Shown in pieces: positions 13,243 to 35,543 of a DNA stretch of 64,000 nt (within the stretch, counting starts at the first letter, position 1; the number at the start of each line of letters is the position of its first letter). A program made the position numbers and the translations under genes. The stretch lies in the NCBI GenBank assembly GCA_039794085.1, contig JBDIWC010000004.1, forward strand, positions 1 to 64,000. Reading direction: 5' to 3'. The notes under the pieces are model-generated. The model saw only the letters and a list, made by a program, of their open reading frames with translations, was not told where the DNA came from and ran no database searches. This stretch comes from Gemmatimonadales bacterium. GTDB taxonomy: Bacteria; Gemmatimonadota; Gemmatimonadetes; Gemmatimonadales; GWC2-71-9.

Positions 13243-13631
13243 GTCGCACCCCCGAAAGTGCGCGGCATCTCATCGGGGGATCCCCCAAGTCGACGGACCG
13301 CAGTATGCCTTTCCCTTGCGCGAGAGGTCCTCGAGAACTGTCATGGGAGTGAAACCTTGTCGCCCGGCCTCTCGTAGACTACTGGCACAGTTGGCCTTCA
13401 GGCGGTAGACTCTGGGATCCGCCCCCTGTGCCGGCGGCAGTTTCTCCACCACACGCGTCTTTTCCGGTCCGTCCACACGGAGCTTCAGGCATGATGCAAA
13501 CCCGTCCCATTCACCCCGCCCCAACACCCAGCACCTCTACACCACCCACACCAGGTATCGGGTTTCGGGCCTTGGGTATCGGGTCCCCCGCCCCCAACAC
13601 CCGGATCCCAACACCCGATAGCCCTTTCCCC

Positions 13632-16600
13632 ATGCTGGCCGGACTGGCACTCCTGGCGGCCGTCCTCGGGGCGATCCCCGGTCCACTCCAGGCCCAAGGT
13701 TCTTCGGCGGGGCAGAAGCCGGGACTCCCGCTGGAGGCGTCACAGACGGCCCGATTCACGGCCACCAGGGGTACCTGGATGTCGGTGGATGTGAGCCCCG
13801 ATGGCCAGACCCTGGTTTTTGATCTGCTGGGAGACCTCTACCGGATGCCGATCACCGGAGGGACGGCCACGCGCCTGACCCAGGGGCTCGCCTACGACGC
13901 GCAACCCCGCTTCAGTCCCGATGGGTCCCGGATTGTTTTCCTCTCCGACCGGACCGGAGGCGAGAATCTCTTCACCATCGCCACGGACGGCTCCGACCTC
14001 CGCCAGGTGACTCCACCCGGCAACCAGCTCGGCTACACCTCACCCGAATGGACCCCCGACGGGAAGTACATCGTCGCCTCCCGCTCGGGTTCGGGCTTCG
14101 GGGTCAAGAAACTCTGGCTCTTCGACACCGAGGGCGGAACCGGGGTTCCTCTCGGCTCCCAGGCGGGACCGCAGGGACTGTACGGTGCGGCCTTCGGACC
14201 CGATGGACGCTTCGTGTATTACGCCTGGCGGATCGGGCTCTGGCAGTACAATGCCTCGATGCCGCAGTTCCAGGTGGGGGTCTACGACCGGGAGACGGGG
14301 AACACCACCACCATCACCTCCCGCTACGGATCCGCGTTCCGGCCCGCCATCTCTCCGGACGGGAAGTGGCTTTCCTACGGTTCCCGTGAGAACACCGAAA
14401 CCGGACTCCGCCTCCGGGACCTGGCGAGCGGCGAGGAACGGTGGCTTGCCTATCCGGTTCAACGGGACAACCAGGAATCGGTCCCCGATCTCGATGTGCT
14501 TCCCGGCTACTCCTTCACCCCCGATTCTCGCGCCATCGTTCTCTCCTACGGGGGCGAGTTCTGGCGGGTCCCGGTGGATGGGACGGCCGCCACGAAGATC
14601 CCCTTCACGGTGAACGCCGAGGTGGCGGTGGGCCCGGTGGTGAAGTTCGAGTATCCGATCGAGGACGCCCCCACCTTCACGGTCCGGCAGATCCGGGAGC
14701 CGGTGGCGTCCCCCGATGGGCAGCAGGTCGCGTTCTCCGCGCTGGACCGACTCTACGTGGCGGACGGTGCCACCGGGACGCCGCGTCGCGTGACCACCGC
14801 GGACGTCGGAGAGTATGCGCCGACCTGGAGCCCGGACGGGCAGTCGCTCGCGTATGTGACCTGGGATGGAACCCGCGGCACCCTGTCGAGAGTGGACCTC
14901 GCCACGGGAACGGTGACGGAACTGGCCGGGGACGGTCTCTTCCTGAGTCCCGCATGGTCCCCCACCGGAGGGGGGGGGCGCATCGTCGTGACACGAGCCT
15001 CCGCCCGGGAGATGCGCGAGGCGGTGGATCCCTTCGTGTCGGGCTTTGGCGCGGAACTGGTCTGGGTTCCGGCCTCGGGCGGGCCGATGACGACAATCCG
15101 TCCGGCGGGGAACGTGTCCGCCCCTCACTTCACGGCGGATACCTCACGAATCTTTGCCTACGGCTTCATTCCTCCCCCGCCCGGGGCGCCCCCCGGATCG
15201 GCGGGACCTGCCCTGGTCTCCATGCGGTGGGACGGGACCGATCTCCGGCAGCATGTCCGCATGCTCGGTCCCCTTCCGCTCGGCGCCACCCCTCCGGAGG
15301 ACCCCAGCCGGGGCGACATCGTGATGCCCCCCACCGAGACGGATCAGGAGGTGAACCGGGGACTCTCCGCAGCCACGATCCGGATGGCCCCGCGAGGGGA
15401 CTTCGCCCTGGCCGAGATCGGCCGGGAGCTCTACCTGGCCCGCATCCCCCAGGTCGGGGGGGCGGTTCCGATCATCAACATGTCGACGCCCGACAGCGCC
15501 GGCACCCGGGCGATCCGGCTGAGCGACATCGGGGGTGAGTTCGCCTCCTGGAGCGCGGATGGGCGCACGGTCCACTGGGGGATCGGGAACGCGTTCGTCT
15601 CCTACGACGTGGCCCGTGGCCTGGCGGTGGACGACAGCCTTCGAAGGGCCGGGGCCGACTCGGCCACCCGGTGGAACAACGCCTACCGGCCCGCCGAGCA
15701 GCGGATTCTCGTGAGCGCTCCCCGGGACATTCCGGAGGGAACCGTGGTGCTGCGCGGGGCCCGCATCATCACCATGCGGGGAGAGGAGGTGGTGGAGAAC
15801 GGAGACGTGGTGGTCCGCAACAATCGGATCGTGAGCGTCGGGCCTCAGGGCACCGCGCCGGCCGGAGCCCGGGTGATCGATGTGCAAGGCAAGACCATCG
15901 TGCCGGGCTTCGTGGACACCCATGCCCACATGTGGCCCGGGTGGGGGATTCACTGGAAACAGCCCTGGATCTACCTCGCCAGCCTGGCCTGGGGGGTCAC
16001 CACCACGCGGGATCCCCAGACCTCGACCACCGATGTGCTCACCTATCAGGACCGGGTCGAGGCGGGCCAGGTCGTCGGTCCCCGGGTGTACAACACCGGC
16101 CCCGGCGTGTTCAGCGTGGACCGGGTGGGAACCCTGGAGCGGGCCCGGGACGTGCTCCGGCGCTACAGCACCTACTACGACACCAAGACGTTCAAGATGT
16201 ACATGGCGGGGAACCGGCAGACCCGGCAGTACCTCATCATGGCGGCGCGGGAACTGGAGCTCATGCCCACCACCGAGGGCGGACTCCAGTTCATGCTCAA
16301 CATGACGCACGCCATGGACGGGTACTCCGGGGTGGAACACACCATCCCTCTCGCGCCGATGTATGACGACGTGGTCCAGCTCTACAAGACCTCGGAAACC
16401 ACCAACACGCCGACTCTCCTCGTGTCCTACGGGGCACCCTGGGCGGAGAACTGGTTCTACACGACCGAAAATCCCACGGCCGATCCGAAGGTGCGTCACT
16501 TCATGCCCGCCGAGGAACTCGACCTCAAGGCCCGTCGCCGGAACTCGTTGGCAAGCCCCGGTCCCTCGGGATGGGTGCATGAGTCGGAGTATGGTTTCCG

Positions 16601-17006
16601 GCGGCATGCGGCCTTTTCCAAGGCGCTGGTCGAGGCCGGGGGCCGGGCGGGCATCGGAAGCCACGGGCAGTTCCAGGGTCTCGGCTATCACTGGGAGCTC
16701 TGGGCGGTGCAGAGCGGGGGAATGCGTCCCCACGACGCCCTCCGGGTGGCCACCCTGCTGGGCGCCGAGGCGCTCGGGCTCGGGCGGGATCTCGGCTCGG
16801 TCGAGGCCGGCAAGATCGCCGATCTGGTGATTCTCGATGCGAATCCGCTCGACGACATCCGCAACACCAACACTGTCCGCCATGTGATGAAGAACGGGCG
16901 GCTCTACGAGGGTGACACCATGAACGAGATCTGGCCCCGACAGCGCCCCGCGGGGGATCAACCGTGGCGCCACTTCGCCCCGACCAACACCACCGGCCAG
17001 CGGTGA
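13632..17006 (+). CDS. Secreted PD40/TolB beta-propeller + amidohydrolase domain protein (paralog 1)
   Basis: Signal peptide; repeated P.FSPDG; PGFVDTHAH; GKIADLVILD. Confidence 0.92.
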   Translation: MLAGLALLAAVLGAIPGPLQAQGSSAGQKPGLPLEASQTARFTATRGTWMSVDVSPDGQTLVFDLLGDLYRMPITGGTATRLTQGLAYDAQPRFSPDGSRIVFLSDRTGGENLFTIATDGSDLRQVTPPGNQLGYTSPEWTPDGKYIVASRSGSGFGVKKLWLFDTEGGTGVPLGSQAGPQGLYGAAFGPDGRFVYYAWRIGLWQYNASMPQFQVGVYDRETGNTTTITSRYGSAFRPAISPDGKWLSYGSRENTETGLRLRDLASGEERWLAYPVQRDNQESVPDLDVLPGYSFTPDSRAIVLSYGGEFWRVPVDGTAATKIPFTVNAEVAVGPVVKFEYPIEDAPTFTVRQIREPVASPDGQQVAFSALDRLYVADGATGTPRRVTTADVGEYAPTWSPDGQSLAYVTWDGTRGTLSRVDLATGTVTELAGDGLFLSPAWSPTGGGGRIVVTRASAREMREAVDPFVSGFGAELVWVPASGGPMTTIRPAGNVSAPHFTADTSRIFAYGFIPPPPGAPPGSAGPALVSMRWDGTDLRQHVRMLGPLPLGATPPEDPSRGDIVMPPTETDQEVNRGLSAATIRMAPRGDFALAEIGRELYLARIPQVGGAVPIINMSTPDSAGTRAIRLSDIGGEFASWSADGRTVHWGIGNAFVSYDVARGLAVDDSLRRAGADSATRWNNAYRPAEQRILVSAPRDIPEGTVVLRGARIITMRGEEVVENGDVVVRNNRIVSVGPQGTAPAGARVIDVQGKTIVPGFVDTHAHMWPGWGIHWKQPWIYLASLAWGVTTTRDPQTSTTDVLTYQDRVEAGQVVGPRVYNTGPGVFSVDRVGTLERARDVLRRYSTYYDTKTFKMYMAGNRQTRQYLIMAARELELMPTTEGGLQFMLNMTHAMDGYSGVEHTIPLAPMYDDVVQLYKTSETTNTPTLLVSYGAPWAENWFYTTENPTADPKVRHFMPAEELDLKARRRNSLASPGPSGWVHESEYGFRRHAAFSKALVEAGGRAGIGSHGQFQGLGYHWELWAVQSGGMRPHDALRVATLLGAEALGLGRDLGSVEAGKIADLVILDANPLDDIRNTNTVRHVMKNGRLYEGDTMNEIWPRQRPAGDQPWRHFAPTNTTGQR

Positions 17007-17014
17007 GGCGCACC

Positions 17015-20000
17015 ATGACAACCTCGACGACTCCCCTGCTTCGCCGGATTGCCGCGGTCACCCTGGTGAGCGCGACGGCCCTTGCCCTTCCGCTCGCCGC
17101 CCAGGGACCGCGTCCCGGTGCGGGTGGCCCCGGTGGGCCACCACCCAAACCGCTCCCGCTGGAAGCGAAGCGATCCGCTACCTTCACCGCCACCGAGGGA
17201 ACCTGGATCTCCCTCGATGTGAGCCCCGATGGCCAGACCATCGTGTTCGACCTCCTCGGGGATCTCTACACCATGCCCATCACGGGAGGCACCGCGACGG
17301 CCCTGACCTCGGGCCTCGCCTTCGACGCCCAGCCCCGGTTCAGCCCCGATGGGAAGCGGCTGGTCTTCGTGTCGGACCGGAGCGGTGGCGACAACGTGTG
17401 GTTGATGGACCTGGAGACCAAGGACACCACCCAGCTCACCCAGGGAAACAACGCCCTCTACGTGTCGCCCGAGTGGACACCCGATGGACAGTACATCGTG
17501 GTGAGCCGGGCCACCGGGTCGTTCGGGACCGCCAAGCTCCATCTCTACCACGTGGACGGAGGGTCGGGCCTCCCGCTGATTCGCCAGCCGGCCAACGCCA
17601 AGACGATCGGCGCCTCCGTCACGCCCGACGGGCGGTACATCTGGCATGCCCGCCGGAACGGAGACTGGAACTACAACGCTCTCTTCCCGCAATATCAACT
17701 GGCGGTGTATGACCGGGAAACGGGGGAAACCCGCGGCATGGCGGGTCGCTACGGCTCCTCGTTCCGTCCGGCCATCTCTCCCGACGGGAAGTGGCTCGTC
17801 TACGGGACCCGGCACGAAACCGGGACCGGGCTTCGGGTGCGGGACCTGGCCACCGGCGACGAAGAGTGGCTCGCCTGGCCCGTCCAGCGGGATGACATCG
17901 AGTCCCGCGGCACTCTCGACGTGCTTCCCGGTTACGCCTTCACCCCCGACTCCCGGGCGGTCATCACCTCGTACGGAGGAGGGATCTGGCGAGTGCCGCT
18001 CGACAAGTCCGCCCCGGTGCGCATTCCCTTCTCCGCCGAGGTGAAGACCGCGGTGGGACCCGAAGTGAAGTTCGCCTGGCGGGTGGACACCGCCGCCACC
18101 CTCACCGCCCGGCAGATCCGGAATCCCGTGGTGTCGCCCGATGGGAAACGCGTGGCGTTCACCGCCGTGGACCGGCTCTATGTTCAGGACCTTCCGGAGG
18201 GAACCCCTCGCCGGGTCACGACCGCCGATGCGGGGGAATACCAGCCGGTCTGGTCCCCCGACGGATCCTCCCTCGCCTGGATCAACTGGCGGGACGGCAG
18301 CGGCGGACACCTCATGCGCGCCACCTTCGATGCCCGCGGCACGCCCCGTCCGGTGCAGGTGAGTCGCGTGGCGGCTCTCTACTCCAATCCCGCGTTTGCG
18401 CCGGACGGGAACCGGATCGTGGTGACCCGGGCCCCGGCCCGCGATCTCCTCGAGGCCTCCGGGAACGGGGGCGGAACCTTCGGGGGGGATTTCGTCTGGT
18501 TCCCCGCGGCCGGCGGTGATGCCACACTGATCGCCCCGACCGCGGGCCGGGACGTCGCGCACTTCGTGCTCAGCGAGCCCGATCGGATCTACGCATCGAG
18601 TCCCTTCCGGGGTCTGGTCTCGTTCCGGTGGGACGGGACCGACGAGCGTCAGGTGGTGCGCGTCGTGGGAGCCATGCCTTTCGGATTCGGCCAGTTCGAT
18701 CCGGAGGAGGAGATGGTCTTCCTGCCCCGCCGGATCGCCCCGGTGCGGGCCGACGCTCTCTACACCCGCGTCTCCCGGGAAAACCTGGAACCGGTGCCGC
18801 AGCCGACACCGGCCGGGGTGATTATGATGTCCCCCGCCGGCGGCCAGGCCCTGGCCCAGGTCAACACCGATCTCTATGTGGTGACTGTTCCGGTGACCGG
18901 AGGACCGGTGCCCACGATCAACGTGGCCGGAGGGAGTGCCGTGCCGGTGCGGAAACTGACCGACATCGGTGGGGAGTTCCCCGCCTGGTGGGGACCCGAG
19001 GGCCAGCACGCCACCTTCGCCCTCGGCAACACCCTCTTTCAGTATGACCTCGCCCGTGCCAAGACGGTGGACGACAGCCTGAAGGCGGCGGCCAAGGCCA
19101 AGGCGGACACCGCCCGTGTCAAACAGGCCACCAACGACACGATCAAGACCCTGAAGGCCCGGGCCGACAGCCTCATCAAGGCAAAGCAGCCGGTGCCCGA
19201 TTCGATCAAGATCCGGATCTTCGATCTCGAGGCGCGGCTCGTTTCCGATTCCATCGCCGCCGCCAACGCCGCCAAGGCCCGTGCCGACAGCGTCAAGGCC
19301 AAGGCAGACACGAGCAAGGCGAAGGCGGACACCACGAAGAAGCCCGCCACCCCCGACAAGCCGGGGTACAAGCCGGTCGAGCGGAAGATCACCGTGACCC
19401 TCCCCCGGGACATTCCGAAGGGAACGGTGGTGCTGCGGGGCGGGCGCGCCATCACCATGAAGGGCCACGAAATAATCGAGAACGCGGACGTGGTCGTACG
19501 GGACAACCGGATCATGGCCGTGGGAGCCCGAGGAGCAGTAACGGTCCCCGGAGGGGCGCGCATCATCGATGTGACCGGGAAGACCATCATGCCGGGGATG
19601 ATCGATGTGCACTATCACGCTCAGTGGCTCATCCCGGAGGTCCACCCGGGCCAGACCTGGCAGTATCTGACCACGCTGGCCTATGGCGTCACCACAACGC
19701 GGGATCCGCAGACCCAGTCCACCGATGTCCTGAGCTACCAGGATCGGGTGGAGACCGACGGCATGCTCGGTCCCCGGATCTACTCCACCGGCCCCGGCGT
19801 CGGGCTTCCCAACAATGAGGGGGTGCGCGATCTGGATCACGCGAAGAACATGCTGAAACGCTACAGCGAGTTCTGGGACACCAAGACCCTCAAGATGTAC
19901 ATGAGCGGCAACCGCCAGCAGCGGCAGTGGATCATCATGGCGGCCAAGGACCTCGGCATCATGCCCACCACCGAGGGGGGCCTCGACTTCCGGCTCGACC

Positions 20001-20734
20001 TGACCCACGCCATGGACGGATATCCCGGTGTGGAGCACTCCCTGCCGATCACCCCGATTTTCGGTGATGTGGTGGAGCTCTTCAAGGCGAGCCAGACCAC
20101 CCACACGCCGACCCTGCTCGTCTCCTACGGGGGGCCGTTCGGGGAGAACTACTACTACACCCATGAGAACGTCCTCGGAGATCCCAAGCTCAATCGTTTC
20201 ATGCCAAAGGGCCAGATCGATGCCCGGGCCCGCCGCAGGGGGAGCGAACCTGCTGTGTTCAACCCCAACGGCTACCGCCAGGGAGGCTGGTTCCTGGATG
20301 AGGAGTATGTGTTCACGAAGCACGCGGAGTTCGTGAAGAAGATGATCGAGGGTGGCGCCCGCTCGGCGCTTGGCGCCCACGGCCAGATTCAGGGGATCGG
20401 GAATCACTGGGAGCTCTGGTCCATGGCCTCGGGGGGGCTGTCCAATCACGATGCCCTGCGCACCGCCACCATCTACGGTGCCGAGGCGATCGGTTTCGGA
20501 CAGGATCTGGGCAGCCTGGAGCCGGGAAAGCTCGCGGACATCCTGGTCCTCGATGACGATCCGCTCGTGAACATCCGGAACACCAACAGCATCCGGTATG
20601 TGATGAAGAATGGCCGCCTCTACGAAGGGGCGACGTTGAACGAGGTCTGGCCGCGCCAGCGGGCGATGTCGGCCCAGTGGTGGGCCGAGGCGGCGGAGGG
20701 TCCCAAGGTGGCTGCGGGCCTCGGGATGCCCTGA
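17015..20734 (+). CDS. Secreted PD40/TolB beta-propeller + amidohydrolase domain protein (paralog 2)
   Basis: Colinear with paralog 1; PGMIDVHYH; GKLADILVLD. Confidence 0.92.
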   Translation: MTTSTTPLLRRIAAVTLVSATALALPLAAQGPRPGAGGPGGPPPKPLPLEAKRSATFTATEGTWISLDVSPDGQTIVFDLLGDLYTMPITGGTATALTSGLAFDAQPRFSPDGKRLVFVSDRSGGDNVWLMDLETKDTTQLTQGNNALYVSPEWTPDGQYIVVSRATGSFGTAKLHLYHVDGGSGLPLIRQPANAKTIGASVTPDGRYIWHARRNGDWNYNALFPQYQLAVYDRETGETRGMAGRYGSSFRPAISPDGKWLVYGTRHETGTGLRVRDLATGDEEWLAWPVQRDDIESRGTLDVLPGYAFTPDSRAVITSYGGGIWRVPLDKSAPVRIPFSAEVKTAVGPEVKFAWRVDTAATLTARQIRNPVVSPDGKRVAFTAVDRLYVQDLPEGTPRRVTTADAGEYQPVWSPDGSSLAWINWRDGSGGHLMRATFDARGTPRPVQVSRVAALYSNPAFAPDGNRIVVTRAPARDLLEASGNGGGTFGGDFVWFPAAGGDATLIAPTAGRDVAHFVLSEPDRIYASSPFRGLVSFRWDGTDERQVVRVVGAMPFGFGQFDPEEEMVFLPRRIAPVRADALYTRVSRENLEPVPQPTPAGVIMMSPAGGQALAQVNTDLYVVTVPVTGGPVPTINVAGGSAVPVRKLTDIGGEFPAWWGPEGQHATFALGNTLFQYDLARAKTVDDSLKAAAKAKADTARVKQATNDTIKTLKARADSLIKAKQPVPDSIKIRIFDLEARLVSDSIAAANAAKARADSVKAKADTSKAKADTTKKPATPDKPGYKPVERKITVTLPRDIPKGTVVLRGGRAITMKGHEIIENADVVVRDNRIMAVGARGAVTVPGGARIIDVTGKTIMPGMIDVHYHAQWLIPEVHPGQTWQYLTTLAYGVTTTRDPQTQSTDVLSYQDRVETDGMLGPRIYSTGPGVGLPNNEGVRDLDHAKNMLKRYSEFWDTKTLKMYMSGNRQQRQWIIMAAKDLGIMPTTEGGLDFRLDLTHAMDGYPGVEHSLPITPIFGDVVELFKASQTTHTPTLLVSYGGPFGENYYYTHENVLGDPKLNRFMPKGQIDARARRRGSEPAVFNPNGYRQGGWFLDEEYVFTKHAEFVKKMIEGGARSALGAHGQIQGIGNHWELWSMASGGLSNHDALRTATIYGAEAIGFGQDLGSLEPGKLADILVLDDDPLVNIRNTNSIRYVMKNGRLYEGATLNEVWPRQRAMSAQWWAEAAEGPKVAAGLGMP

Positions 20735-20932: not shown

Positions 20933-22606
20933 ATGACTGACAACCGACGTTTCCCCTTCGCGCTGCTGGTCGGGACCTTCCTCTTCCTTGCCTGCGGGCC
21001 CGCGGGGCCGGCCCCCGACCTCATCGTCCTGGGGCGGGTCTGGACCGGTGACCGCACCGCTCCCTGGGCGCAGGGTGTTGCCATCCGGGGCGACCGCATC
21101 CTCGCCTTGGGGGATCGCGACACCATCCTGGCGATGGCGACCTCCGGGACCGTCACCCTCGACAACGGGACCAACCTCGTCACGCCCGGCCTCCAGGACG
21201 GCCACACTCACCTGTTCGGGGGCGGCTTCCAACTTCAATCCGTTGACTTGCGGGACGCCTCCTCCCCGGAGGAGTTTATCCGAAGGATCGCGGCCTTCGC
21301 CACCACCGTCGGCGAGGGCGTCTGGATCCAGGGTGGCACCTGGGACCACGAGCGCTGGCCCGGGGCCACGCTTCCCGCCGCGGCATGGATCGATTCGGTG
21401 ACGGGGAACACGCCCGTCTTCGTGAGTCGCCTCGACGGCCACATGGCACTCGCCAACTCGGCGGCGATGCGGTTGGCCGGGGTGACGTCCGCCACGCCCA
21501 CTCCTCCCGGTGGCGAGATCGTCCGTGACCGAAACGGGAATCCCACCGGAGTGTTCAAGGACGCCGCGATGGATCTCGTCGCGTCGGCGATTCCGTCGCC
21601 GAACGCCGAGCAGCTCGACAGTGCCTTGGCCGGGGCGATGCGGCACGCCGCGTCGCTGGGAGTGACCGCGGTATCGCATGTTTCCGCGTCCTGGGAGGAG
21701 GTCGCCGCCCTCCGGCGGGCCCGGGACCAGGGGCGGCTCACGCTGCGGGTGACGGTCTATACCCCGCTCGCGGGCTGGCGAGAGGCGGCGGAATCACTCC
21801 GGGTGTCGGGGCCTGGTGACGAGTGGCTCCGCGTCGCCGGGGTCAAGGGGTTTGTGGACGGATCCCTCGGGTCCACCACCGCCCTGTTCGAGGATCCCTA
21901 CACCGACGCCCGGGGAACGTCGGGGCTGTTCGTGACCCCCGAGGATTCCCTCCGGCGCTGGATCGCGGCGGCGGATTCCGCGGGGCTGCAGGTGGCTGTG
22001 CACGCCATTGGCGATCGTGCCAACGCGATTCTCCTCGACGTCTACGATAGCGTGGCTCGCGCCCACGGGCCCCGGGACCGCCGGTTCCGGATCGAGCATG
22101 CCCAGCATCTGCGCCCGGTGGACATCGAACGGATGGCCCGATTCGGCGTGCTGGCCTCGATGCAGCCCTATCATGCCATTGATGATGGGCGCTGGGCGGA
22201 AAAGAGGATCGGCCGGGACCGGATCCGCACCACCTACGCCTTCCGCTCGTTGCTCGACGCGGGGGCCGAGCTGGCGTTCGGCTCGGACTGGCCCGTGGCA
22301 CCCCTCCGGCCGGCCGAAGGGCTCTACGCGGCGGTGACGCGCCGCACCCTGGATGGCTGGAATCCCGAGGGATGGGTCCCGGCGGAGCGGATCACGCTGG
22401 AAGAGGCGTTGCGGGCGTACACGGCGGCCAATGCCCGGGCCACCTTTCACGAGGAGGATCTGGGTGTCCTCCGAGTAGGGGCCCTGGCAGATCTGGTGTT
22501 GTTCGACCGGGATCTCTTCCAGGTTCCGCCCGGTCAGATCCGCGAGGCGGCTGTGAAGAACACTGTGGTGGGGGGGGGACCGGTGCAGAGGATCCCCCCC
22601 GGGTGA
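20933..22606 (+). CDS. Amidohydrolase_3 (YtcJ-like) lipoprotein
   Basis: Lipobox FLAC; PGLQDGHTH, VDGSLGS, HAIGD, RIEHAQ, FGSDWPV. Confidence 0.92.
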   Translation: MTDNRRFPFALLVGTFLFLACGPAGPAPDLIVLGRVWTGDRTAPWAQGVAIRGDRILALGDRDTILAMATSGTVTLDNGTNLVTPGLQDGHTHLFGGGFQLQSVDLRDASSPEEFIRRIAAFATTVGEGVWIQGGTWDHERWPGATLPAAAWIDSVTGNTPVFVSRLDGHMALANSAAMRLAGVTSATPTPPGGEIVRDRNGNPTGVFKDAAMDLVASAIPSPNAEQLDSALAGAMRHAASLGVTAVSHVSASWEEVAALRRARDQGRLTLRVTVYTPLAGWREAAESLRVSGPGDEWLRVAGVKGFVDGSLGSTTALFEDPYTDARGTSGLFVTPEDSLRRWIAAADSAGLQVAVHAIGDRANAILLDVYDSVARAHGPRDRRFRIEHAQHLRPVDIERMARFGVLASMQPYHAIDDGRWAEKRIGRDRIRTTYAFRSLLDAGAELAFGSDWPVAPLRPAEGLYAAVTRRTLDGWNPEGWVPAERITLEEALRAYTAANARATFHEEDLGVLRVGALADLVLFDRDLFQVPPGQIREAAVKNTVVGGGPVQRIPPG

Positions 22607-22745
22607 CTACCTGATCAGATCCCGAGTATTCCGCGTGCGCCTCACCCCGATGAAAGGGCGCCCCATTTCGTTGGATATGCGCAACACTTTTTGGGATCGC
22701 CATGGAATGGGGTTGCCGCATGAGCGATTTCCATAATGCCATGTG

Positions 22746-22804
22746 AATCAAATGGTTGACCATTATCACATCCACCTCGCGAGGCGGTCGGGCCACGGGT
22801 TGCA
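22746..22804 (+). promoter_or_regulatory. IHF site plus candidate sigma54 promoter for the lasso cluster
   Basis: AATCAAATGGTTG matches WATCAANNNNTTR (22746-22758); GG-N10-GC with TTGCA at 22790-22804, but the -24 box is imperfect. Confidence 0.55.
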
Positions 22805-22904
22805 AGTGGCTGGTTTCTTGCCGTATGATTATTGTTCGGTGATGTTGCGATATCGCCGAAAGGGCATCGAGCCCTTGGGATCCCTTTTCGCTTTGGAGGT
22901 GTAT

Positions 22905-23027
22905 ATGGCCAGCCACAAGACACCGTGGACCCGCCCGGTTCTCGTCACCAAGCCCGTGCAGGAGACTCTGCAGGGACTTGGAAGCAACCTCGACGCTATC
23001 GGCGGCGAATTTCCGGTGCAGAGCTAA
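22905..23027 (+). CDS. Lasso peptide precursor (A), 40 aa: MASHKTPWTRPVLVTKPVQETL-QGLGSNLDAIGGEFPVQS
   Basis: GGAGGT RBS at 22895; leader WxxPxL; Thr at -2; acceptor Asp; C-terminal Ser; directly upstream of the lasso maturation genes. Confidence 0.9.
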   Translation: MASHKTPWTRPVLVTKPVQETLQGLGSNLDAIGGEFPVQS

Positions 23028-23049
23028 GCACCCAGCTCGAATCGGAAAT

Positions 23050-23090
23050 CGATGCCCCCCGGGAATTGCAGCCTGGGGGGCATCGGCTTT
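23050..23090 (+). terminator. GC-rich stem-loop after the precursor (attenuator or mRNA stabiliser)
   Basis: CGATGCCCCCCGGG...CCTGGGGGGCATCG followed by GCTTT. Confidence 0.7.
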
Positions 23091-23122
23091 CCTGGCCTGC
23101 GTTGACATCGGAGTGGGCAAAG

Positions 23123-24088
23123 ATGGCGCTCGATGAGATCCTCCTTTCGACACCCCTGCAGTACCTCATCTATGGCCTACGCGTCGAAAGCGACATTGAC
23201 CTCCCCGGATGGCCCCACGCCGCCGGAGGAGGACCTGCCGACCTGACCATCCGCCATCGGTCCCTCCCTATGGACCGATCGCCAGGGGCCCCCTACACCG
23301 CCCAGGGAGCACTCAAGAACGACCGAGTCGACCTCTACATCCGCGGGGTCGGGGCCTACCGGGCAGCCGACGGAACCCGCATTGATGTCGACCCCGACCC
23401 TTCGGCGTCCCCGGAGGATGTCCTCCTCTACCTCACGGGTGCGATGCTCGGGGTCATCCTCCACCTTCGTGGAGCCTTTCCCCTTCACGCCAGCTGCGTC
23501 ACCCTGGGACCGGGTGGAGGCGGCATCGCGTTTGCCGGCCCTTCAGGGGCGGGAAAATCGACCCTTGTCAGTGCCTTCCTGGATCGTGGGGGGGTGCTGG
23601 TGACGGACGACGTGGCGGTATTATTCCAGACCGAAGAAGGACATACCCATGCCTGGCCCGGCGCTCGTCGGGTAAAGCTCGACGACGGCTCCCTGGAGGT
23701 CCTGAAGCGTCCGAAGGGCGAAGGGCGGGGACTCGAACGGGCGGGGGGGAATCGGGGGAAATTCCATGTGACGGTCGAGGGTGCCCTTCTGCCGCCGACC
23801 CCCGTGGCCAAGGTATACATCCTGCATGAGGAGGAGGGACTGGTCCGCACGGAGAACCTGAGCGGGGTAGACGCCGTCGCGGCCCTGGTGGAGCACACGT
23901 ACCTTTTGGCCTACGCCTCTGGCCTCGGTCGGGGGCGGCAATGCTTCCGACTGGCTGCGGAGGTGGCTCGCACGGTCCCTGTCGCCCGCCTCATTCGACC
24001 GAGGGGGTTCCAGCATCTCGAACCGGTGCTCGACCTCCTCGAGCAGGAGGCCCGAACGGCCCAGGATACCACAAGGGGGGATGCATGA
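23123..24088 (+). CDS. HPr-kinase-like lasso precursor kinase (PadeK-like)
   Basis: LHASCV, Walker A GPSGAGKST, TDD; N-terminal YGLRVESD; cluster context. Confidence 0.87.
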   Translation: MALDEILLSTPLQYLIYGLRVESDIDLPGWPHAAGGGPADLTIRHRSLPMDRSPGAPYTAQGALKNDRVDLYIRGVGAYRAADGTRIDVDPDPSASPEDVLLYLTGAMLGVILHLRGAFPLHASCVTLGPGGGGIAFAGPSGAGKSTLVSAFLDRGGVLVTDDVAVLFQTEEGHTHAWPGARRVKLDDGSLEVLKRPKGEGRGLERAGGNRGKFHVTVEGALLPPTPVAKVYILHEEEGLVRTENLSGVDAVAALVEHTYLLAYASGLGRGRQCFRLAAEVARTVPVARLIRPRGFQHLEPVLDLLEQEARTAQDTTRGDA

Positions 24089-24375
24089 CACCCGGCAATC
24101 TGATTGGTCCCGACACCCGGCTCGCACGGAGCGACGAACCGGTGGCGGTCGAGGTCGACCGCACCGTCGTGATGATGAGCGTGGAGCAGGGGAAGTATTT
24201 CGGCCTCGAAGGGCCGGGAGGCCGCATCTGGGCCTTGTTGGAGCAACCGCGAACGCCGCGTGAACTGCGGGACACCCTCCTGGACGAATTTGCGGTTGAC
24301 CCCGACCGCTGTCTTCAGGACGTCTGCGATTTTCTGGAGGAGCTCCGCAGCGCCGGCCTGGTTCACGTTCCATGA
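24085..24375 (+). CDS. PqqD-family RiPP recognition element (lasso B1)
   Basis: VMMSVEQGKYFGL, RIWALLEQP, EFAVDPDRCLQDV pattern. Confidence 0.92.
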   Translation: MTPGNLIGPDTRLARSDEPVAVEVDRTVVMMSVEQGKYFGLEGPGGRIWALLEQPRTPRELRDTLLDEFAVDPDRCLQDVCDFLEELRSAGLVHVP

Positions 24376-24800
24376 ACCTGCTGGCCCGGGCCGGGCGCCT
24401 CTCGGTCGCGGAAATGCGGTTGCTCACCGAGGCCATCTTCGGTCTGGTGGTGAGCGGGGTGCTCATCCGGTTCTGGCGATTCCGCGTCCTCGCGGCGCAC
24501 CTGGGGCGACACATGGCCGAGAGTCCGATCGACCAGGATCGGGCGCAACTCGCGGTCGCCCAGAGCATCCGGTGGGCGATACACGCGACGGCGCGGCGAC
24601 TTCCCTGGCATCCCGTCTGTCTCCCCCAGGCCCTGACTGCGCAGTGGATGCTCCGGCGCCGTGGCATCACCTCGACGCTGTACCTTGGCGTGGACCCCGG
24701 CTCCCGATACGACGCCCACGCCTGGGTTCGGGCCGGCGCCCTGATCGTCACCGGCGGACCGCGCCGGCCGGAGTTCGTGGTTGTCTCCACCTTTGCATGA
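24372..24800 (+). CDS. Lasso leader peptidase B2 (transglutaminase-like)
   Basis: CLPQAL catalytic Cys, LYLGV, AHAWV catalytic His. Confidence 0.93.
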   Translation: MNLLARAGRLSVAEMRLLTEAIFGLVVSGVLIRFWRFRVLAAHLGRHMAESPIDQDRAQLAVAQSIRWAIHATARRLPWHPVCLPQALTAQWMLRRRGITSTLYLGVDPGSRYDAHAWVRAGALIVTGGPRRPEFVVVSTFA

Positions 24801-24842: not shown

Positions 24843-26789
24843 ATGAGCACCATTGCCGGACTCTACCAATGGGACGGTGGCCCCGCGTCGCGATCTCGCC
24901 TCGCGCCGATGCTGGATACCCTCGCGGCCTGTGGTGGGGAAGCCCGGTGCTGGGCCCCTGAAACGGAATCCCACCCGGTGGCCCTGGGATGCCGCCCCCT
25001 GCGAATCACCGCGGAGGATGAGAACTACCATCCTCCGCTCCGCTCTCCGGATGGCCAGCTGGTGCTCGTGGCGGACGCCCGGATCGACAATCGAGTCGAC
25101 CTGGGCCATCGGCTCGGAATCTCCGCAGCGGAGGCCGGAACGTTGTCGGATCCCGGGTTCATTCTGGCGGCGTATGAGGCGTGGGGCCGTGACTGTGTCC
25201 GTCACCTTCTCGGTGACTTCGTGTTCCTGCTCTGGGATGGACAGCGCCGGACCCTCTTTGGTGCGCGAGACGGGTTGGGGCAGCGGGTGCTGTTCTTCCA
25301 CCGGAGCCCTTCCCGCGTGGCCTTTGCCAGCACCCCTGCCGCGCTACTCGCCTTGGACGACGTCCCGGCCCGCCTGAACCGGCGCAAGGTCGCCATGGCT
25401 CTGGTTCTCCTCCAGGATCCCGGGACAACCTATTTCGAGGGGATCGAGCGGCTGCTCCCGGGACACACCCTGGAAGCGGGTCCGTCCGGGATCCATATCG
25501 CTCCGTTCTGGACACCGGTCCCAACCCGCGAGATCCGGTTCGCGTCGGATAGCGAGTATGTCGAGGCCTTTCTGGGTGTGTTCGACTCGGCCGTTCGGGC
25601 CCGGACCCGTGGCACGGGCGGGATCGGTGTCCTCCTGAGCGGGGGGATCGATTCCACCGCGGTCGCGGCCACTGCGGCCCTGACGATGGAGGGGCGGCCG
25701 CTCCACGCGTTTCATGCGGCTCCCGCTCTCAACTTCGACGGTCGAATCGGGCGGGGGATGGTGGCCGACGAATCCGCCGATGTGGTGGCGATTGCCGAGC
25801 ACCATCCCACCATTGACCTCCGGATCGATCGCGCCTCCTACCTCAAGGAGCTGTGGGAGGTCGATTCCCTGTACGGAGCCGTGGGGTCGCCGGTTCGCAA
25901 TCCAAGCAACTGGGGCTGGTACCAGGGACAATACGCCGCGGCTCGCGCAGTGGGTGTGCGCGTGATGCTGAATGGAAGCATGGGGAACGCGACCATCAGC
26001 CACCTGGGAACGAGGTCCCTTCGCGATCTCGCGCGGCGGGGTGCCTGGGCGACACTCTGGCGAGAGATGCACTCCGTGGCGGCTGCCACGGGGGCCGGTC
26101 GGTGGTCGGTGCTTCGGGATCAGGTTCTCCTGCCCCTCATTCCGCTGCCCGTGGAGCGCCTGTACCGTCGGTGGCGTGGTCTCCGGACCCTCTCGCTCCT
26201 GGATCAGTCCGCCTCGGCGCTCCGCCGGGACCAGGTGGCGGCCTTTGCCCTGGAGGACGTGGCCCGGACCATGGGCCGCGGCGCGGATCAGCTTCGGCGG
26301 TGCCGAGGTCTGGATCTCCGGTTAGCGACCCTCGCCGGGACTGGGGAGACGTTTGATGCCCTCAACGGCCTGCGCGCCTGGCATGGGATTGAAACGCGCG
26401 ATCCCACGGCCGACACCCGGGTCGTGGAGTTCTGCCTGGCGATCCCCGAAACGCAGTACCATCGTGGCGGGGAGAAGCGCTGGTTGATCCGTCGTGCCAT
26501 GCGAGGCCGGGTTCCCGACCAGGTCCTCGACCGGAAGGAGTTCGGTGGCCAGGGGGCCGACTGGATGGACTGGATGCACTTCCTGCGACCGGATGCGGCC
26601 AGGGAACTCGACAACATGGACCGGTCGGAGACGGCCCGGGACCTCCTCGATCTTCCGCGGCTGCGCACCCTCCTCGATCGGTGGCCGGAGCGATTCGGCC
26701 CCGAGCACGAGGTGGACTACAAGCTGCGCTTTCTTCGGGGAATCATGATGGGTCGCTTCCTCCTCTGGTTTGAAAGGACCCACGGGTGA
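24843..26789 (+). CDS. Lasso cyclase C (asparagine synthetase-like)
   Basis: ARIDNR, ARDGLG, LSGGIDS; begins MSTIAG, lacking the N-terminal Cys of glutaminase-active AsnB. Confidence 0.9.
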   Translation: MSTIAGLYQWDGGPASRSRLAPMLDTLAACGGEARCWAPETESHPVALGCRPLRITAEDENYHPPLRSPDGQLVLVADARIDNRVDLGHRLGISAAEAGTLSDPGFILAAYEAWGRDCVRHLLGDFVFLLWDGQRRTLFGARDGLGQRVLFFHRSPSRVAFASTPAALLALDDVPARLNRRKVAMALVLLQDPGTTYFEGIERLLPGHTLEAGPSGIHIAPFWTPVPTREIRFASDSEYVEAFLGVFDSAVRARTRGTGGIGVLLSGGIDSTAVAATAALTMEGRPLHAFHAAPALNFDGRIGRGMVADESADVVAIAEHHPTIDLRIDRASYLKELWEVDSLYGAVGSPVRNPSNWGWYQGQYAAARAVGVRVMLNGSMGNATISHLGTRSLRDLARRGAWATLWREMHSVAAATGAGRWSVLRDQVLLPLIPLPVERLYRRWRGLRTLSLLDQSASALRRDQVAAFALEDVARTMGRGADQLRRCRGLDLRLATLAGTGETFDALNGLRAWHGIETRDPTADTRVVEFCLAIPETQYHRGGEKRWLIRRAMRGRVPDQVLDRKEFGGQGADWMDWMHFLRPDAARELDNMDRSETARDLLDLPRLRTLLDRWPERFGPEHEVDYKLRFLRGIMMGRFLLWFERTHG

Positions 26790-28600
26790 GGGCGCCGAGT
26801 CGGACGGAGAGCCCGTGGCTGTTTGACCTGGGGCCGCTGCGGCATGGCCTTGCTCTGGTCTGGCGGAGCGCACCGGGGTGGTCTCTGGTGCAGGGAAGTC
26901 TCCTGGTGGTGCAGGGGATCCTCCCCCTCGCATCACTCTACCTCATCAAGCTGATCGTCGACACGGTCAGCGCCGCCGTGACCACGGGCAACAGCGATCC
27001 GGGCCGATTGACCCTTCTCGTCCTGCTGGGGGGCGGGGTCGCCGCGCTGTCGGCGGGACTGGGGGCCCTCAGTACCATGGTGGGAGAAGTACAGTCGCTC
27101 CGTCTTGCCGACGCGGTGCTGGACGTGATGCACGCTCAATCGGTGTCGATCGACCTCGAGCGATACGAAAGTGCGGAGTATCACGACACGCTCCATCGCA
27201 CCCAGGAGCGAGCCCCGTACCGCCCTGCGCGCATCGTGCAGGAAGTGTCTCAGATCGCGCGGGGGGGGCTCTCCCTCGTCGGCATCCTGGGCCTCCTGCT
27301 CGCGTTTCATTGGCTCCTCGTGGTGGTCTTGCTGGTGGCGGCGATTCCCGGACTGGTGATCAAGACGGTCCACTCCCGTCGCCACCATGCCTGGGCCCAG
27401 ACCCGCACGGCCGTCCACCGGCTGGCACAGTACCTCAGCTCGCTGATGACCAGCGCGGCATTCGCCAAGGAGATCCGGCTGTTCGACCTCGGCGGGCCTC
27501 TTCGCCAACGGTTTCGGGTCATCCGGGAAGCGGTCATCAGGGATCGGATCCATCTGGTGCGCCGGCGCGCGATCGCAGACCTGGGGGCGCAGGTCGTGGC
27601 CGTGGCCGCGGTCTTTGGTTCCCTGCTGGTGGTGGCGCGGTGGGCCGCGTCTGGAGCCTTGTCGGTGGGGGACATGGTGATGTACTTCGGGGCTTTTCAG
27701 CGGGCGCAGGATTACTTCAAGGACATGCTGTCAGGGGTGGCCGGATTGTATGAGGACAACCTCTTCCTGGCGGACTTCCAGGAGTTCGCCTCGCTCCGCC
27801 CCAGGGTCGTGGATCCCCCCGTGCCGCGAGCCTTCCCCCATCCTCTGACGGAGGGCATCTCCTGCGACGGGCTGACCTTCCGGTATCCGGGGACCGATCG
27901 GGATGTGCTGACTGACATCACCTTCGACATCCGTCCGGGGGAGCACGTGGCACTGGTCGGAGAAAACGGGTCCGGCAAGACCACTCTCGTCAAGCTTCTC
28001 TGCCGGTTGTACGATCCGACGCGTGGTGAAATTCGGATCGGAGGGGTCGATCTTCGGACCTTTCGTCTCACGGATCTCCGCCGGGAGCTGGCCGTCGTGT
28101 ACCAGGACTATGCGCGCTATCAACTCTCGGTGCGCGACAATATCTGGATGGGCAATGTGGACCTCTCCCCGGACAGCCCCCGGATCACCGAGGCGGCGCG
28201 CCGCACCGGAGCGGACACCGCGATCGCACGGCTCCCGCACGGGTACGACACGATTCTGGGTCGCCAATTCGTGGACGGAGCGGAGTTGAGCCTCGGGGAA
28301 TGGCAGAAGATTGCCCTCGCTCGCGCCTTCGTGCGCGACGCCCAGATTATCATCCTGGATGAACCGACCGCAGCGCTCGATCCTCGCTCCGAGGCCGAGG
28401 TCTTTGAGCAGTTCACCGCTCTGGCGGCCGGGAGAACCACCCTCGTGATCAGCCACCGGCTCGCCACGGTCCGGAACGCCGACCGCATATTCGTGATGGC
28501 AGAGGGTCGCCTCGTCGAATCAGGCCCCCATGATGCCCTCATGGCCCAGGAGGGCATCTACGCACATTTCTTCGAGACCCAGGCGAGGTCCTACCGGTGA
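26786..28600 (+). CDS. ABC exporter, fused permease/ATPase (lasso D)
   Basis: TM domain; GENGSGKT, LSLGEWQ, LDEPT, SHRL. Confidence 0.93.
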   Translation: MRAPSRTESPWLFDLGPLRHGLALVWRSAPGWSLVQGSLLVVQGILPLASLYLIKLIVDTVSAAVTTGNSDPGRLTLLVLLGGGVAALSAGLGALSTMVGEVQSLRLADAVLDVMHAQSVSIDLERYESAEYHDTLHRTQERAPYRPARIVQEVSQIARGGLSLVGILGLLLAFHWLLVVVLLVAAIPGLVIKTVHSRRHHAWAQTRTAVHRLAQYLSSLMTSAAFAKEIRLFDLGGPLRQRFRVIREAVIRDRIHLVRRRAIADLGAQVVAVAAVFGSLLVVARWAASGALSVGDMVMYFGAFQRAQDYFKDMLSGVAGLYEDNLFLADFQEFASLRPRVVDPPVPRAFPHPLTEGISCDGLTFRYPGTDRDVLTDITFDIRPGEHVALVGENGSGKTTLVKLLCRLYDPTRGEIRIGGVDLRTFRLTDLRRELAVVYQDYARYQLSVRDNIWMGNVDLSPDSPRITEAARRTGADTAIARLPHGYDTILGRQFVDGAELSLGEWQKIALARAFVRDAQIIILDEPTAALDPRSEAEVFEQFTALAAGRTTLVISHRLATVRNADRIFVMAEGRLVESGPHDALMAQEGIYAHFFETQARSYR

Positions 28601-29820
28601 GCGAACCCGGGGGTCGCCTGCTCGCCCTCCTGCGGGGAAAGGGCCGTGATCTTGGATGCCCCTCCGAGGACGAGTGGCCTCTCCTCCTCGGTCAGGCGGC
28701 CCAGTGGCAGTGCGGAGCACTGACTTACCGGACGCTGGAGGACGCCCGGTGCCTCGAGCTTGCTCCCGCAGGCGTACGCGACCGGCTGCGATCGGCCTAT
28801 GTGCAGGCCGCCACCCGGAACGCGCTCCTCTTCCGGGATGTCGCCCGTGCGGCCGCGATGCTCGCGCGCGCCGACATTCCCCTGATGCTTCTCAAGGGGG
28901 TACACCTTGCCCGGTTCGTCTATCCCGAACCGGCCCTGCGAAGCATGGCAGATCTGGATCTGATGGTCCCGCGGGACCGGCTCGTCGAGGCGGAGAACCT
29001 CTTTCTGGGGGCCGGGTGTGGACCGACCCCGCGTCCCGATCCCGTCGAGTTCTGTACCCGCTCCAATCATCTCGCGAAGCTGTCCGCCCCGGGCGGAACG
29101 GTGGTCGAGCTGCACTGGACCATCGAGCGGCCCACGAGCCCGTTTGCCATCGATCTGGACGGCCTGTGGGCGCGAGCCGACATCGTCCGGTTCGAGAAGC
29201 AACGGGTTCGGGTGCTCTCCCCGGAAGACCTGGTGTTGCACCTGGTGCTTCACACGTCCTTTCACCACGGGTTCGATCGCTCGGCGATCAAGGCCCTGGT
29301 GGACCTTCGCCATGTGATCGACCTCCATCGCGACACGCTCGACTGGAACACCCTGGTCACCCGCGCGAATGCCTGGGGAGCCGGTGGAGTCACCTACGTG
29401 ACCCTGCAACTCGCCACCTCCCTCATGGGTGCACCGGTTCCAGCCGCAGCCCTGGGGACACTGGAGCACTCCCCCGACGATGAGGTGGCGATGGAGGCGG
29501 CCCGGGAGTTCGTCCTGCGGCCACCGACCCTGCCGAAGGTGTTCGTGGAAGTCGCCCGACGCACGGGATCGGACCGGTGGAGGTGGATCTTCCATCGGAT
29601 CTTCCCCCCGCCGATGACCATGGCGAGGCTCCACGGCCTGAGGTTAGGCTCTCCGTGGGTGTACCCACTCTACCTGATTCGCCTCGCTGGCCTTCTGGTG
29701 GGGCGGGGGCTCCTGCTGCTGAGAGCGATGCTTCCCGGGGCCGCCCGCAAGGAAACCCTCGAAAGAGAGGTGAACCGGCAGCGCATCGAGGAGTGGATCA
29801 AGGCCCAGGGCGGCTCCTGA
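28597..29820 (+). CDS. Nucleotidyltransferase family protein (NTP_transf_5-like; lasso tailoring candidate)
   Basis: LLKG, RSMADLDLMV, VELHW motifs; GTGA overlap with the ABC gene. Confidence 0.88.
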   Translation: MSEPGGRLLALLRGKGRDLGCPSEDEWPLLLGQAAQWQCGALTYRTLEDARCLELAPAGVRDRLRSAYVQAATRNALLFRDVARAAAMLARADIPLMLLKGVHLARFVYPEPALRSMADLDLMVPRDRLVEAENLFLGAGCGPTPRPDPVEFCTRSNHLAKLSAPGGTVVELHWTIERPTSPFAIDLDGLWARADIVRFEKQRVRVLSPEDLVLHLVLHTSFHHGFDRSAIKALVDLRHVIDLHRDTLDWNTLVTRANAWGAGGVTYVTLQLATSLMGAPVPAAALGTLEHSPDDEVAMEAAREFVLRPPTLPKVFVEVARRTGSDRWRWIFHRIFPPPMTMARLHGLRLGSPWVYPLYLIRLAGLLVGRGLLLLRAMLPGAARKETLEREVNRQRIEEWIKAQGGS

Positions 29821-34115: not shown

Positions 34116-35543
34116 ATGACATCCCAAGATACTCGCAGACGGTACGGGAGGCTCCCCCTCCTGGTCTTCACTCTCCTGTGGCTCGGGGAGGGTTCCGCGA
34201 TGGCTCAGGGTACCCGCAGTCCCTGGGATTCTCTGGCGCGGAGTCTCCTCCGGGAACTGGTGGAGATCAACACGACCGAAAGCTCGGGGAGCACGCTCGC
34301 CGCCTCCCGCGCCATGGCGGAGCGGCTGGTGGCGGCTGGTTTCCCCGCGGGTGATGTCACCGTGGTGCCGCAGGGAAACCGGAAGGGGAACCTGGTGGTC
34401 CGCTACCGGGGACGGAACACCGGAAGGCGTCCCCTGCTTCTGCTGTCCCACCTCGACGTGGTGGAGGCGAATCCGGCGGATTGGACTCTGCCGCCCTTCG
34501 AGCTCGTGGAGCGGGAGGGCACGTTCTATGGCCGCGGGGTGGCGGATGACAAGGACGAGGGCGCCATTCACCTCGCGCTGCTGCTGCGGCTGCGCGCAGA
34601 GGGGTTCGTCCCCGACCGGGACATCATCGTGGCCCTCACCACCGATGAGGAAGGCGGACCCGACAACGGAGTGCAGTACCTGCTCGAACACCACAAGGCG
34701 TTGATCGATGCGGAGTTCGCCTTCAATGAAGGGGGTGGGGGGGATGTGCGCGACGGCAAACGCATCGCCAACGGAGTGCAGGCCAGCGAGAAGATGTTCC
34801 AGAACTTTCTCCTCGAGGTCACCAACCCCGGAGGGCACAGCTCCCAACCGGTGCCCGAGAACGCCATCACCCGGCTGTCCGCCGCCCTGGTCCGCCTCGG
34901 AGCGCACACCTTTCCGGTCCGGCTCAATCCCGTCACCACGGCCTTTTTTGAGCGCTCGGCGCCGTTGGTGGAGCCGGAGGTCGGCGCGGCCATGCGGACG
35001 CTGGTGGTCCGCCCGGACGACGCGGCTGCCGCCCGGGTCCTCACCGTCGACAAGGCGTACAATGCCCTTCTCCGCACGACCTGTGTGGCCACGCTGGTGG
35101 ACGCGGGCCATGCCGCGAACGCCCTGCCTCAGCGCGCCCGGGCGACGGTGAACTGCCGGATCCTGCCGGATGGGTCGGCCTCGAATGTCCGGAGAACACT
35201 CGTGGACGTGATCGCGGATTCCGCGGTGACGATCACGCCGATCGGGACGGCGGTGGAAAGCCCTCCCTCACCCTTGGCACCCGATCTGGTCGCGACGTTC
35301 GAGCGGGTGACGACGTCACTCTGGCCCGGGGTGCCCGTGGTTCCGAAGATGAGCACCGGAGCCACCGACGGGCTCTACCTCCGGAACGCCGGGATTCCAG
35401 TCTATGGGGTCTCCGGGCTCTTCTACCCGGACACGGGTGCCCATGGAATGAATGAGCGGATTCCGGTCCAGGCGTTCTATGACGGACTCGAGTTCATGTA
35501 CCGCCTGGTCAGGGCGGTGACCAGCGGACACCTCGGGGCCTGA
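34116..35543 (+). CDS. Secreted M20/M25/M40 metallo-hydrolase
   Basis: HLDVV, GRGVADDK, DEE, GGHSS, GATDG, AHGMNE. Confidence 0.92.
   Translation: MTSQDTRRRYGRLPLLVFTLLWLGEGSAMAQGTRSPWDSLARSLLRELVEINTTESSGSTLAASRAMAERLVAAGFPAGDVTVVPQGNRKGNLVVRYRGRNTGRRPLLLLSHLDVVEANPADWTLPPFELVEREGTFYGRGVADDKDEGAIHLALLLRLRAEGFVPDRDIIVALTTDEEGGPDNGVQYLLEHHKALIDAEFAFNEGGGGDVRDGKRIANGVQASEKMFQNFLLEVTNPGGHSSQPVPENAITRLSAALVRLGAHTFPVRLNPVTTAFFERSAPLVEPEVGAAMRTLVVRPDDAAAARVLTVDKAYNALLRTTCVATLVDAGHAANALPQRARATVNCRILPDGSASNVRRTLVDVIADSAVTITPIGTAVESPPSPLAPDLVATFERVTTSLWPGVPVVPKMSTGATDGLYLRNAGIPVYGVSGLFYPDTGAHGMNERIPVQAFYDGLEFMYRLVRAVTSGHLGA

Follow-up and report, generated by a model that had tools for sequence, protein, structure and literature searches.

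The window, i.e. the whole stretch of 64,000 nucleotides from a Gemmatimonadales bacterium analysed here, contains a 40-aa reading frame that an earlier note had taken for a lasso peptide precursor. This locus raises the question whether the frame is a gene at all and, if so, whether its product would be closed to a ring from Gln, a residue regarded in that note as atypical for the first core position. The frame translates as MASHKTPWTRPVLVTKPVQETLQGLGSNLDAIGGEFPVQS, with QGLGSNLDAIGGEFPVQS as the predicted core. Its features and those of the neighbouring genes are compiled in Table 1.

Table 1. Features of the predicted lasso peptide locus (window coordinates; Trp, Pro and Thr counts refer to 94 full-length family precursors)
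Feature	Position	Strand	Basis
Conserved upstream block; possible sigma-54 activator binding site (putative)	22633..22687	.	Kept in contigs from other runs
Sigma-54-type -24/-12 promoter element TGGC-N7-TTGC	22807..22821	+	Present before 17/20 precursors
Ribosome-binding site GGAGGT	22895..22900	+	4 nt 5' of ATG; purine-rich sites also before homologous starts
Lasso precursor gene A, 40 aa	22905..23027	+	Translation, homologues, family alignment
Leader, 22 aa: Trp-15 (22926), Pro-12, Leu-10, Thr-2 (22965-22967)	22905..22970	+	Trp/Pro/Thr in 94/94; numbering identical to PbaA
Predicted core, 18 aa: Gln1 (22971-22973), Asp8 (22992-22994), Ser18 (23022-23024)	22971..23024	+	Family conservation
20-bp stem-loop between A and K	23044..23092	+	z = -3.46; 0/200 shuffles as good
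K, HprK-like peptide kinase	23123..24088	+	HprK-related matches weak, below cut-off
B1, leader-binding RRE	24085..24375	+	PF05402 2e-18 (PqqD-type); NF033536 69 bits, cut-off 80
B2, leader peptidase	24372..24800	+	NF033537 93 bits, cut-off 33
C, lasso cyclase	24843..26789	+	NF033535 E 9e-100, 335 bits, cut-off 525; PF00733
D, ABC exporter	26786..28600	+	PF00664 and PF00005
N, PsmN-like nucleotidyltransferase	28597..29820	+	PF14907 8e-55

The precursor gene, its cluster and its family

In the ORF list the precursor appears only within a 94-aa call from GTG 22743. That a smaller gene with its own GGAGGT site and start codon (ATG 22905) is buried in this call, as the earlier note had claimed, was confirmed, since the extension is not conserved. 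The 94-aa call was rejected because the 54-aa extension is broken by a 1-nt insertion in a same-genus genome (G028, open frame 61 aa versus 96 aa) and carries three 1-nt indels in one related contig, and because the conserved sigma-54-type element would start transcription 3' of GTG 22743. An overlapping 253-aa frame on the minus strand was rejected as a gene as well, third-position changes being synonymous only on the plus strand. Among the best-supported differences listed for related contigs (88 more exist across the whole stretch), 10 of 14 substitutions within the ORF are synonymous and the remaining four fall into three variable core codons (core positions 6, 7 and 9); the codons of Gln1 and Asp8 are absent from these best-supported rows.

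The genes follow in the order A-K-B1-B2-C-D-N on one strand with intact catalytic motifs, and four of the five junctions among the six genes 3' of the precursor overlap by 4 nt. K carries the His, Lys and Asp-Asp motifs found in all 22 aligned rows, B1 matches TbiB1 and PDB 9x90, B2 is the sole copy in the genome and shows the Cys and His motifs, C contains SGGxDS and the translation of N shows a DLD motif. C, B1 and K all score under the curated cut-offs, a sequence search of the PDB brought up no solved lasso cyclase, and no NCBIfam or Pfam model matches the precursor itself. The combination described for class II lasso peptides is nevertheless found in one cluster: an RRE, a transglutaminase-like peptidase, an asparagine-synthetase-like cyclase and a precursor with Thr at -2, an acid within core positions 7-9 (Asp8 being the sole one) and a core free of Cys. 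Further 5' in the window lie two tandem paralogous proteins of about 1200 aa (13428-17006 and 16964-20734) which combine beta-propeller-like repeats with a C-terminus resembling amidohydrolases and lie upstream of a third amidohydrolase; membership in the cluster is not implied.

The precursor alone as query retrieved 3 relatives, and profiles retrieved 26, 18 and 72. With E values no higher than 1e-30, K was detected in 11 of the 401 genomes sampled for the window's family and in 11 of 351 for a second family, two of the kinase-bearing genomes being distant and one partial; scans for the cyclase yielded 7 loci on metagenome contigs and 5 on genome contigs, only 2 of which belong to the present family. 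K, B1, B2, C, D and N are all present in the window's order at 14 of 23 mapped loci, while the remaining loci are truncated at contig edges, are missing genes or are distant. The earlier note had made conservation beside homologous cyclases the touchstone of its reading, and the precursor does head 21 of the 23 loci (18 found directly 5' of K, 3 recovered later; in G006 it sits on another contig end and its link to the locus is assumed).

Pooling gave 104 homologous entries, 100 of them distinct, comprising 94 with cores of at least 14 residues and 6 short ones. This large set in one register throughout indicates that the precursor is not a chance ORF, and by the same comparison the gene is real, conserved and at the head of a complete lasso-peptide cluster. 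Trp-15, Pro-12, Thr-2 and Asp8 are invariant in the 94 full-length precursors, none of which was dropped by the register pattern. Within the core, Gly4 (92), Gly2 (91), Gly12 (85), Glu13 (81), Pro15 (65) and Phe14 (49) stand out; the last residue is Ser in 84, and Ser occurs among the final three in 92. These counts are descriptive only, because the 94 sequences are related and were retrieved with profiles seeded on this peptide. The named relatives are Gemmatimonadales and Gemmatimonas records, in accordance with a host from Gemmatimonadota. The family is uncharacterised and here found in this phylum.

The motif TGGC-N7-TTGC, which we take to be the sigma-54 consensus, identifies the promoter element in Table 1. 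First noticed at two loci and counted across 20 afterwards, it lies 100-152 nt 5' of the Trp codon in 17 of 20 precursor upstream regions, against a genome background of 0.0066 per 420 nt; of the remaining three regions, two show the motif in a looser form and the third lacks it. A sigma-54-type promoter conserved across such a family is new here. The genome encodes rpoN and 12 sigma-54 activator domains, none of them on the window's contig. A sigma-70-like site (22800-22829, 9/12) was set aside, as it overlaps the sigma-54-type element. The conserved upstream block is kept in contigs from three other runs, in which the DNA between block and promoter is unlike. It lies about 120 nt 5' of the promoter element and contains TGCGCA, a hexamer seen upstream in G028, G791 and G812, too. 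An Rfam scan of 22550-23200, upstream block included, gave no match. The stem-loop behind A has arms that are kept and a loop that is changed in G028; it has no intrinsic-terminator score and likely stabilises or attenuates the transcript.

Ring, tail and terminal serine

Thr at -2 has been described as invariant in lasso leaders, and the crystallised paeninodin-type leader of PbaA carries W-15 and P-12 (PMC13381572). In the window's precursor the WxxPxL motif stands at -15/-12/-10. The paeninodin-type leader proposed in the earlier note was thus borne out down to the spacing, and its reading of Thr at -2, an 18-aa core and a terminal Ser finds support in the family. The two anchors agree on a cut that is likely to fall after Leu22. 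A ring from Gln1 to Asp8, the earlier note's main claim, is supported as the best reading by the invariance of Thr-2 and Asp8 and by the PbaA-type spacing, and we regard this ring, taken alone, as highly probable; that the tail is also threaded through it appears probable.

For the product as a whole we favour, with good confidence, the explanation that a kinase-type cluster cuts after Leu22, joins Gln1 to Asp8 and gives an 18-residue lasso, probably phosphorylated on its last serine. Transcription would depend on sigma-54, and the hairpin might favour the precursor message. B1 would bind the WxxPxL leader, as homologous structures suggest. By analogy to paeninodin and pseudomycoidin, K would phosphorylate Ser18 before the precursor is cut, and a hexose may be attached to this phosphate by N. 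B2 would then read Thr-2 and cut between Leu-1 and Gln1, the register following from conservation, and C would adenylate Asp8 and close an 8-residue ring between the alpha-amine of Gln1 and the Asp8 side chain around the tail. The hand-over from B2 to C would have to be faster than the formation of pyroglutamate. Candidates for the stoppers are Glu13, Phe14 and the modified Ser, and D would export the peptide. A point against this explanation is that the related bsf cluster never yielded a mature lasso in heterologous hosts, according to PMC10368454.

The modification is predicted from a cluster-encoded HprK-like kinase with His, Lys and Asp-Asp motifs and from the conserved C-terminal Ser. 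PadeK-type kinases phosphorylate the terminal Ser on the uncut precursor (PMC9266682), and PsmN is needed for the hexose on the terminal-Ser phosphate (PMC6993621). By this analogy, the predicted peptide is probably phosphorylated on its last serine. The target of BsfK is a ring Ser rather than the terminal residue (PMC10368454); Ser5 in the window's core is a possible target of this kind.

Alternatively it might be that the ring forms, but that the product is branched-cyclic, or stays threaded only with phosphate and hexose on Ser18, which has been suggested for pseudomycoidin. When K and N were left out, pseudomycoidin was not threaded (PMC6993621), and both genes are retained in the cluster studied here. 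Furthermore, the tail is Gly-rich, and at position 14 the family has Phe in 49, Leu in 13, Gln in 11 and Asp in 6 of 94 members. The Phe plug suggested in the earlier note is accordingly weakly supported, whereas Glu13 and Gly12 are better kept. On the other hand, Glu13 and Pro15 are conserved at typical loop distance. An 8-residue ring is tighter than a 9-residue ring, and the ring predicted here has 8 residues against the 9 of pseudomycoidin. On balance we consider an unthreaded or modification-dependent product unlikely.

Gln at the first core position

Cores of the family begin with Gln more often than with any other residue (39 of 94), and all 39 Gln1 cores have Asp8. The other starts are Ser (24), Gly (16), Ala (6), Asn, Arg and His (2 each) and Val, Thr and Phe (1 each), i.e. 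10 different residues. In the LassoPred table (PMC12214591, supplementary file 3), at least 29 of 4,749 predicted cores start with QG, a lower bound obtained by searching QG followed by any of 12 third letters. For ten of these 29 rows the predicted ring is Gln1-Asp8, about five rows are obviously mis-called and one is filed under paeninodin; none has a peptide name or a PDB entry. The window's family is absent from this table by four motif searches, including the KPV-x-ETL leader end and the GGEFP tail, and absent from the Gemmatimonadota matches listed (29 of 31). The cyclase PalC is reported to accept every first residue except Pro, the variant E1Q being seen at the cyclised mass (PMC13632552 Table S6, 2026), and the same source states that every residue but Pro occurred at position 1 in a large survey of precursors. 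It also lists PadeC, the closest characterised cyclase type, with Ala and Gly only, which counts against Gln1. A full-text literature search that covered mostly non-subscription papers found no natural Gln1 lasso peptide. Of the earlier claim that Gln1 is atypical, its rarity stands, but it is not unprecedented, given the QG rows, the engineered E1Q and a first position that is labile in the family itself.

On a tree of 19 cyclases, the nine Gln1 loci, all with a motif-bearing cyclase, need 5 state changes, 4 of them forced by strong branches. A single Gln1 cyclase clade, and with it a single origin of Gln1, is rejected (p-AU 4e-32), and a 20-row tree gives the same groups. The Gln1 label is not clustered beyond shuffles (75/500) on this weakly rooted tree, and in a comparison of low power, 8 Gln1 and 7 non-Gln1 rows are not told apart by any column of K, B1, B2 or C. 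Tolerance at position 1 has been linked to residues of helix 18 of lasso cyclases. At least five state changes therefore speak for a position-1-tolerant cyclase and not for Gln-specific chemistry; a clade tolerant at position 1 is the simplest reading of Gln1 to which the tree points.

Compared with G028 (L032), the flanks are 94-97% identical and the match is 71/71 through the leader and Gln1, whereas from 22976 to about 26450 of the window the identity is 66-82% by gene. The left edge of this tract lies one codon after Gln1, where leader and core meet. The comparison indicates that the core together with K, B1, B2 and the greater part of C has been exchanged as a block by recombination; such a core-plus-enzyme cassette swap relative to a same-genus genome is new here.

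Family leaders with cores of 8-9 residues, too short for a lasso (FVQDDVLS, FVQDAEQS, FVQDFVQS and FQDNDTIES), were also observed. In G791 (L118), two leaders with 8-residue cores (8576-8662 and 8768-8854, minus strand) belong to a cluster with K, B1, B2, N and an intact cyclase (52% identity), lacking D, and a search of this genome for longer precursors of the family found none; family leaders with short cores likewise occur in G812 (L126, 3036-3122) and in protein P0082. Relatives with 8-residue cores beside an intact cyclase are new here. G279 (L086, 3553-6728, P0043) shows A-K-B1-B2-N, its core of 11 aa retaining nothing but the tail. It has no close cyclase, the best cyclase-like matches elsewhere in its genome being about 30% identical, and the cluster looks like a lasso family member that has decayed into a cassette for a linear phosphopeptide. 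A tandem pair of strongly basic lasso-like precursors with cores starting AKRGRRFD and AKAGRRND occurs in a cluster of different layout in G055 (L034, 5336-5827, minus strand). A more far-reaching scenario would be a naturally promiscuous cyclase clade that swaps core-plus-enzyme cassettes at the boundary of leader and core, in which Gln1 is a fork between two stable products of one gene, a phospho-lasso (captured) and a pyroglutamate-capped linear phosphopeptide (escaped), while a sister cyclase closes 4-5-residue macrolactams on FVQDDVLS and FVQDAEQS. We rate it as speculative and unlikely; such macrolactams, if true, would be below any known lasso ring size.

N-terminal Gln cyclises readily. 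This raises the possibility that Gln1 mostly ends up as pyroglutamate, either spontaneously or through a glutaminyl cyclase that acts after export, and that the main product is a capped linear phosphopeptide. The genome does encode a PF05096 glutaminyl cyclase (E 1e-93; G000 contig C39 19775-20455, L137) with an N-terminus that is lipoprotein-like by eye, and relatives without a cyclase exist, as in G279, which lacks C and D. But Asp8 is kept in every Gln1 core, the nine Gln1 loci on the tree all have a motif-bearing cyclase, and the engineered E1Q gave a lasso mass (PMC13632552). Moreover, the glutaminyl cyclase is encoded on another contig and appears exported, and would therefore not meet a cytoplasmic intermediate. 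Pyroglutamate as the main fate of Gln1 is thus improbable, though as a side route it is possible. Three secreted-looking proteins of the window (13428-17006, 16964-20734 and 34116-35543) have Ala-Gln-Gly at their apparent signal-peptide ends. Together with the glutaminyl cyclase, these ends, judged by eye, suggest that the organism may routinely cap exported proteins with pyroglutamate.

One observation does count against a ring from Gln1: Gly2 is far better conserved than position 1, which alone would suit Gly as the first residue. The earlier note had offered such an alternative, with the cut one residue later (Gln at -1, Leu at -2, Thr at -3) and a Gly1-Asp7 ring. The residue in front of this Gly varies as a -1 position would, seven-residue rings exist, and Ile at -2 is a validated exception to Thr (PMC10368454). 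Against this, both anchors would shift at once (Trp-16, Thr-3), and the position that would become -2 is taken by Leu (61), Ala (18), Met (5), Gln (4), Phe (4) or Arg (2), whereas Thr does not vary. Relatives place Gly, Ser or Ala in the same register as Gln, and the three members lacking the conserved Gly carry Gly or Ser at the preceding position. In the public table, rows of the paeninodin type share the pattern of a variable first residue followed by Gly, and pseudomycoidin starts at Ala. The Gln1-Asp8 ring is far likelier because the Trp/Pro/Thr spacing matches that of the crystallised paeninodin-type leader. Gly1-Asp7 is no even rival; it is quite improbable, and keeps what small chance it has because the Ile-2 exception exists. 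That the cluster is silent or decayed in the window's genome and makes nothing, as the lack of C or D in some relatives might suggest, is very improbable in view of seven open frames with intact motifs, mostly synonymous substitutions among near relatives and a conserved promoter element.

Relation to known systems and significance

The pseudomycoidin cluster psmCAKB1B2ND of Bacillus pseudomycoides (PMC6993621) has the same seven gene types, kinase and PF14907 protein included, and shares with the window the split B1/B2, the terminal Ser and a core start with a variable first residue and Gly2. It differs from the window in gene order, in phylum, in the sigma-54-type promoter found here and in its ring, 9 residues from Ala compared to the predicted 8 from Gln. 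The paeninodin family (PadeA, PbaA; PMC9266682, PMC13381572) shares the WxxPxL leader with Thr-2, the terminal Ser and an HprK-like kinase with the His, Lys and Asp-Asp motifs, but it is described as Bacillota-restricted and has a cyclase listed with Ala or Gly at position 1. A strict definition of that family asks for a Bacillota host and a 9-residue ring, whereas the relatives here are Gemmatimonadota and the acceptor is at position 8. The bsf cluster of Bradymonas sediminis (PMC10368454) is likewise from a Gram-negative bacterium, comprises A, B1, B2, C, D, K and N and has a ring predicted to close on Asp8. In contrast to the window it has a YxxPxL leader, Ile-2, Gly1, Ser3 phosphorylation and a terminal Asp. 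The Bsf subfamily is marked by Ile or Val at -2, YxxPxL and Ser or Thr at position 3, while the window's family has Thr-2 and Trp-15 throughout and Ser or Thr at position 3 in 14 of 94.

Palassoptides and PalC from oral Actinomyces (PMC13632552) resemble the window in an 8-residue ring, unusual first residues and a position-1-tolerant cyclase, but their native first residues are Phe and Glu, Gln1 is only engineered and the maturation set is B1, B2 and C only. The Gln1 rows of LassoPred come from other phyla and have other sequences, and the linear polyphosphorylated peptides (LPP), which go without a cyclase and use a signal peptidase in place of B2, are set apart by the presence of C and B2 here and by a WxxP rather than YxxP leader. 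On this comparison the locus represents an undescribed kinase-type lasso family that would work like pseudomycoidin and paeninodin and stands outside the strict paeninodin family on host and ring size.

Gemmatimonadota lasso clusters have already been noted, as counts (PMC11316326). If confirmed, the peptide would be, so far as our literature search reaches, the first characterised lasso peptide from this phylum and the first natural Gln1 lasso peptide. The conserved sigma-54-type promoter suggests why clusters of this kind might not be expressed in heterologous hosts, and a possible on-switch. The biological role, the weakest step of our proposal, is most likely that of a secreted, condition-induced signal or a surface-associated peptide. 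With about 20 cyclases that are 45-82% identical and have cognate cores beginning with Q, S, G, A, N, V or F while Asp8 is fixed, the family would offer a natural test set for how a lasso cyclase reads position 1 and how B2 hands over a reactive N-terminus to C.
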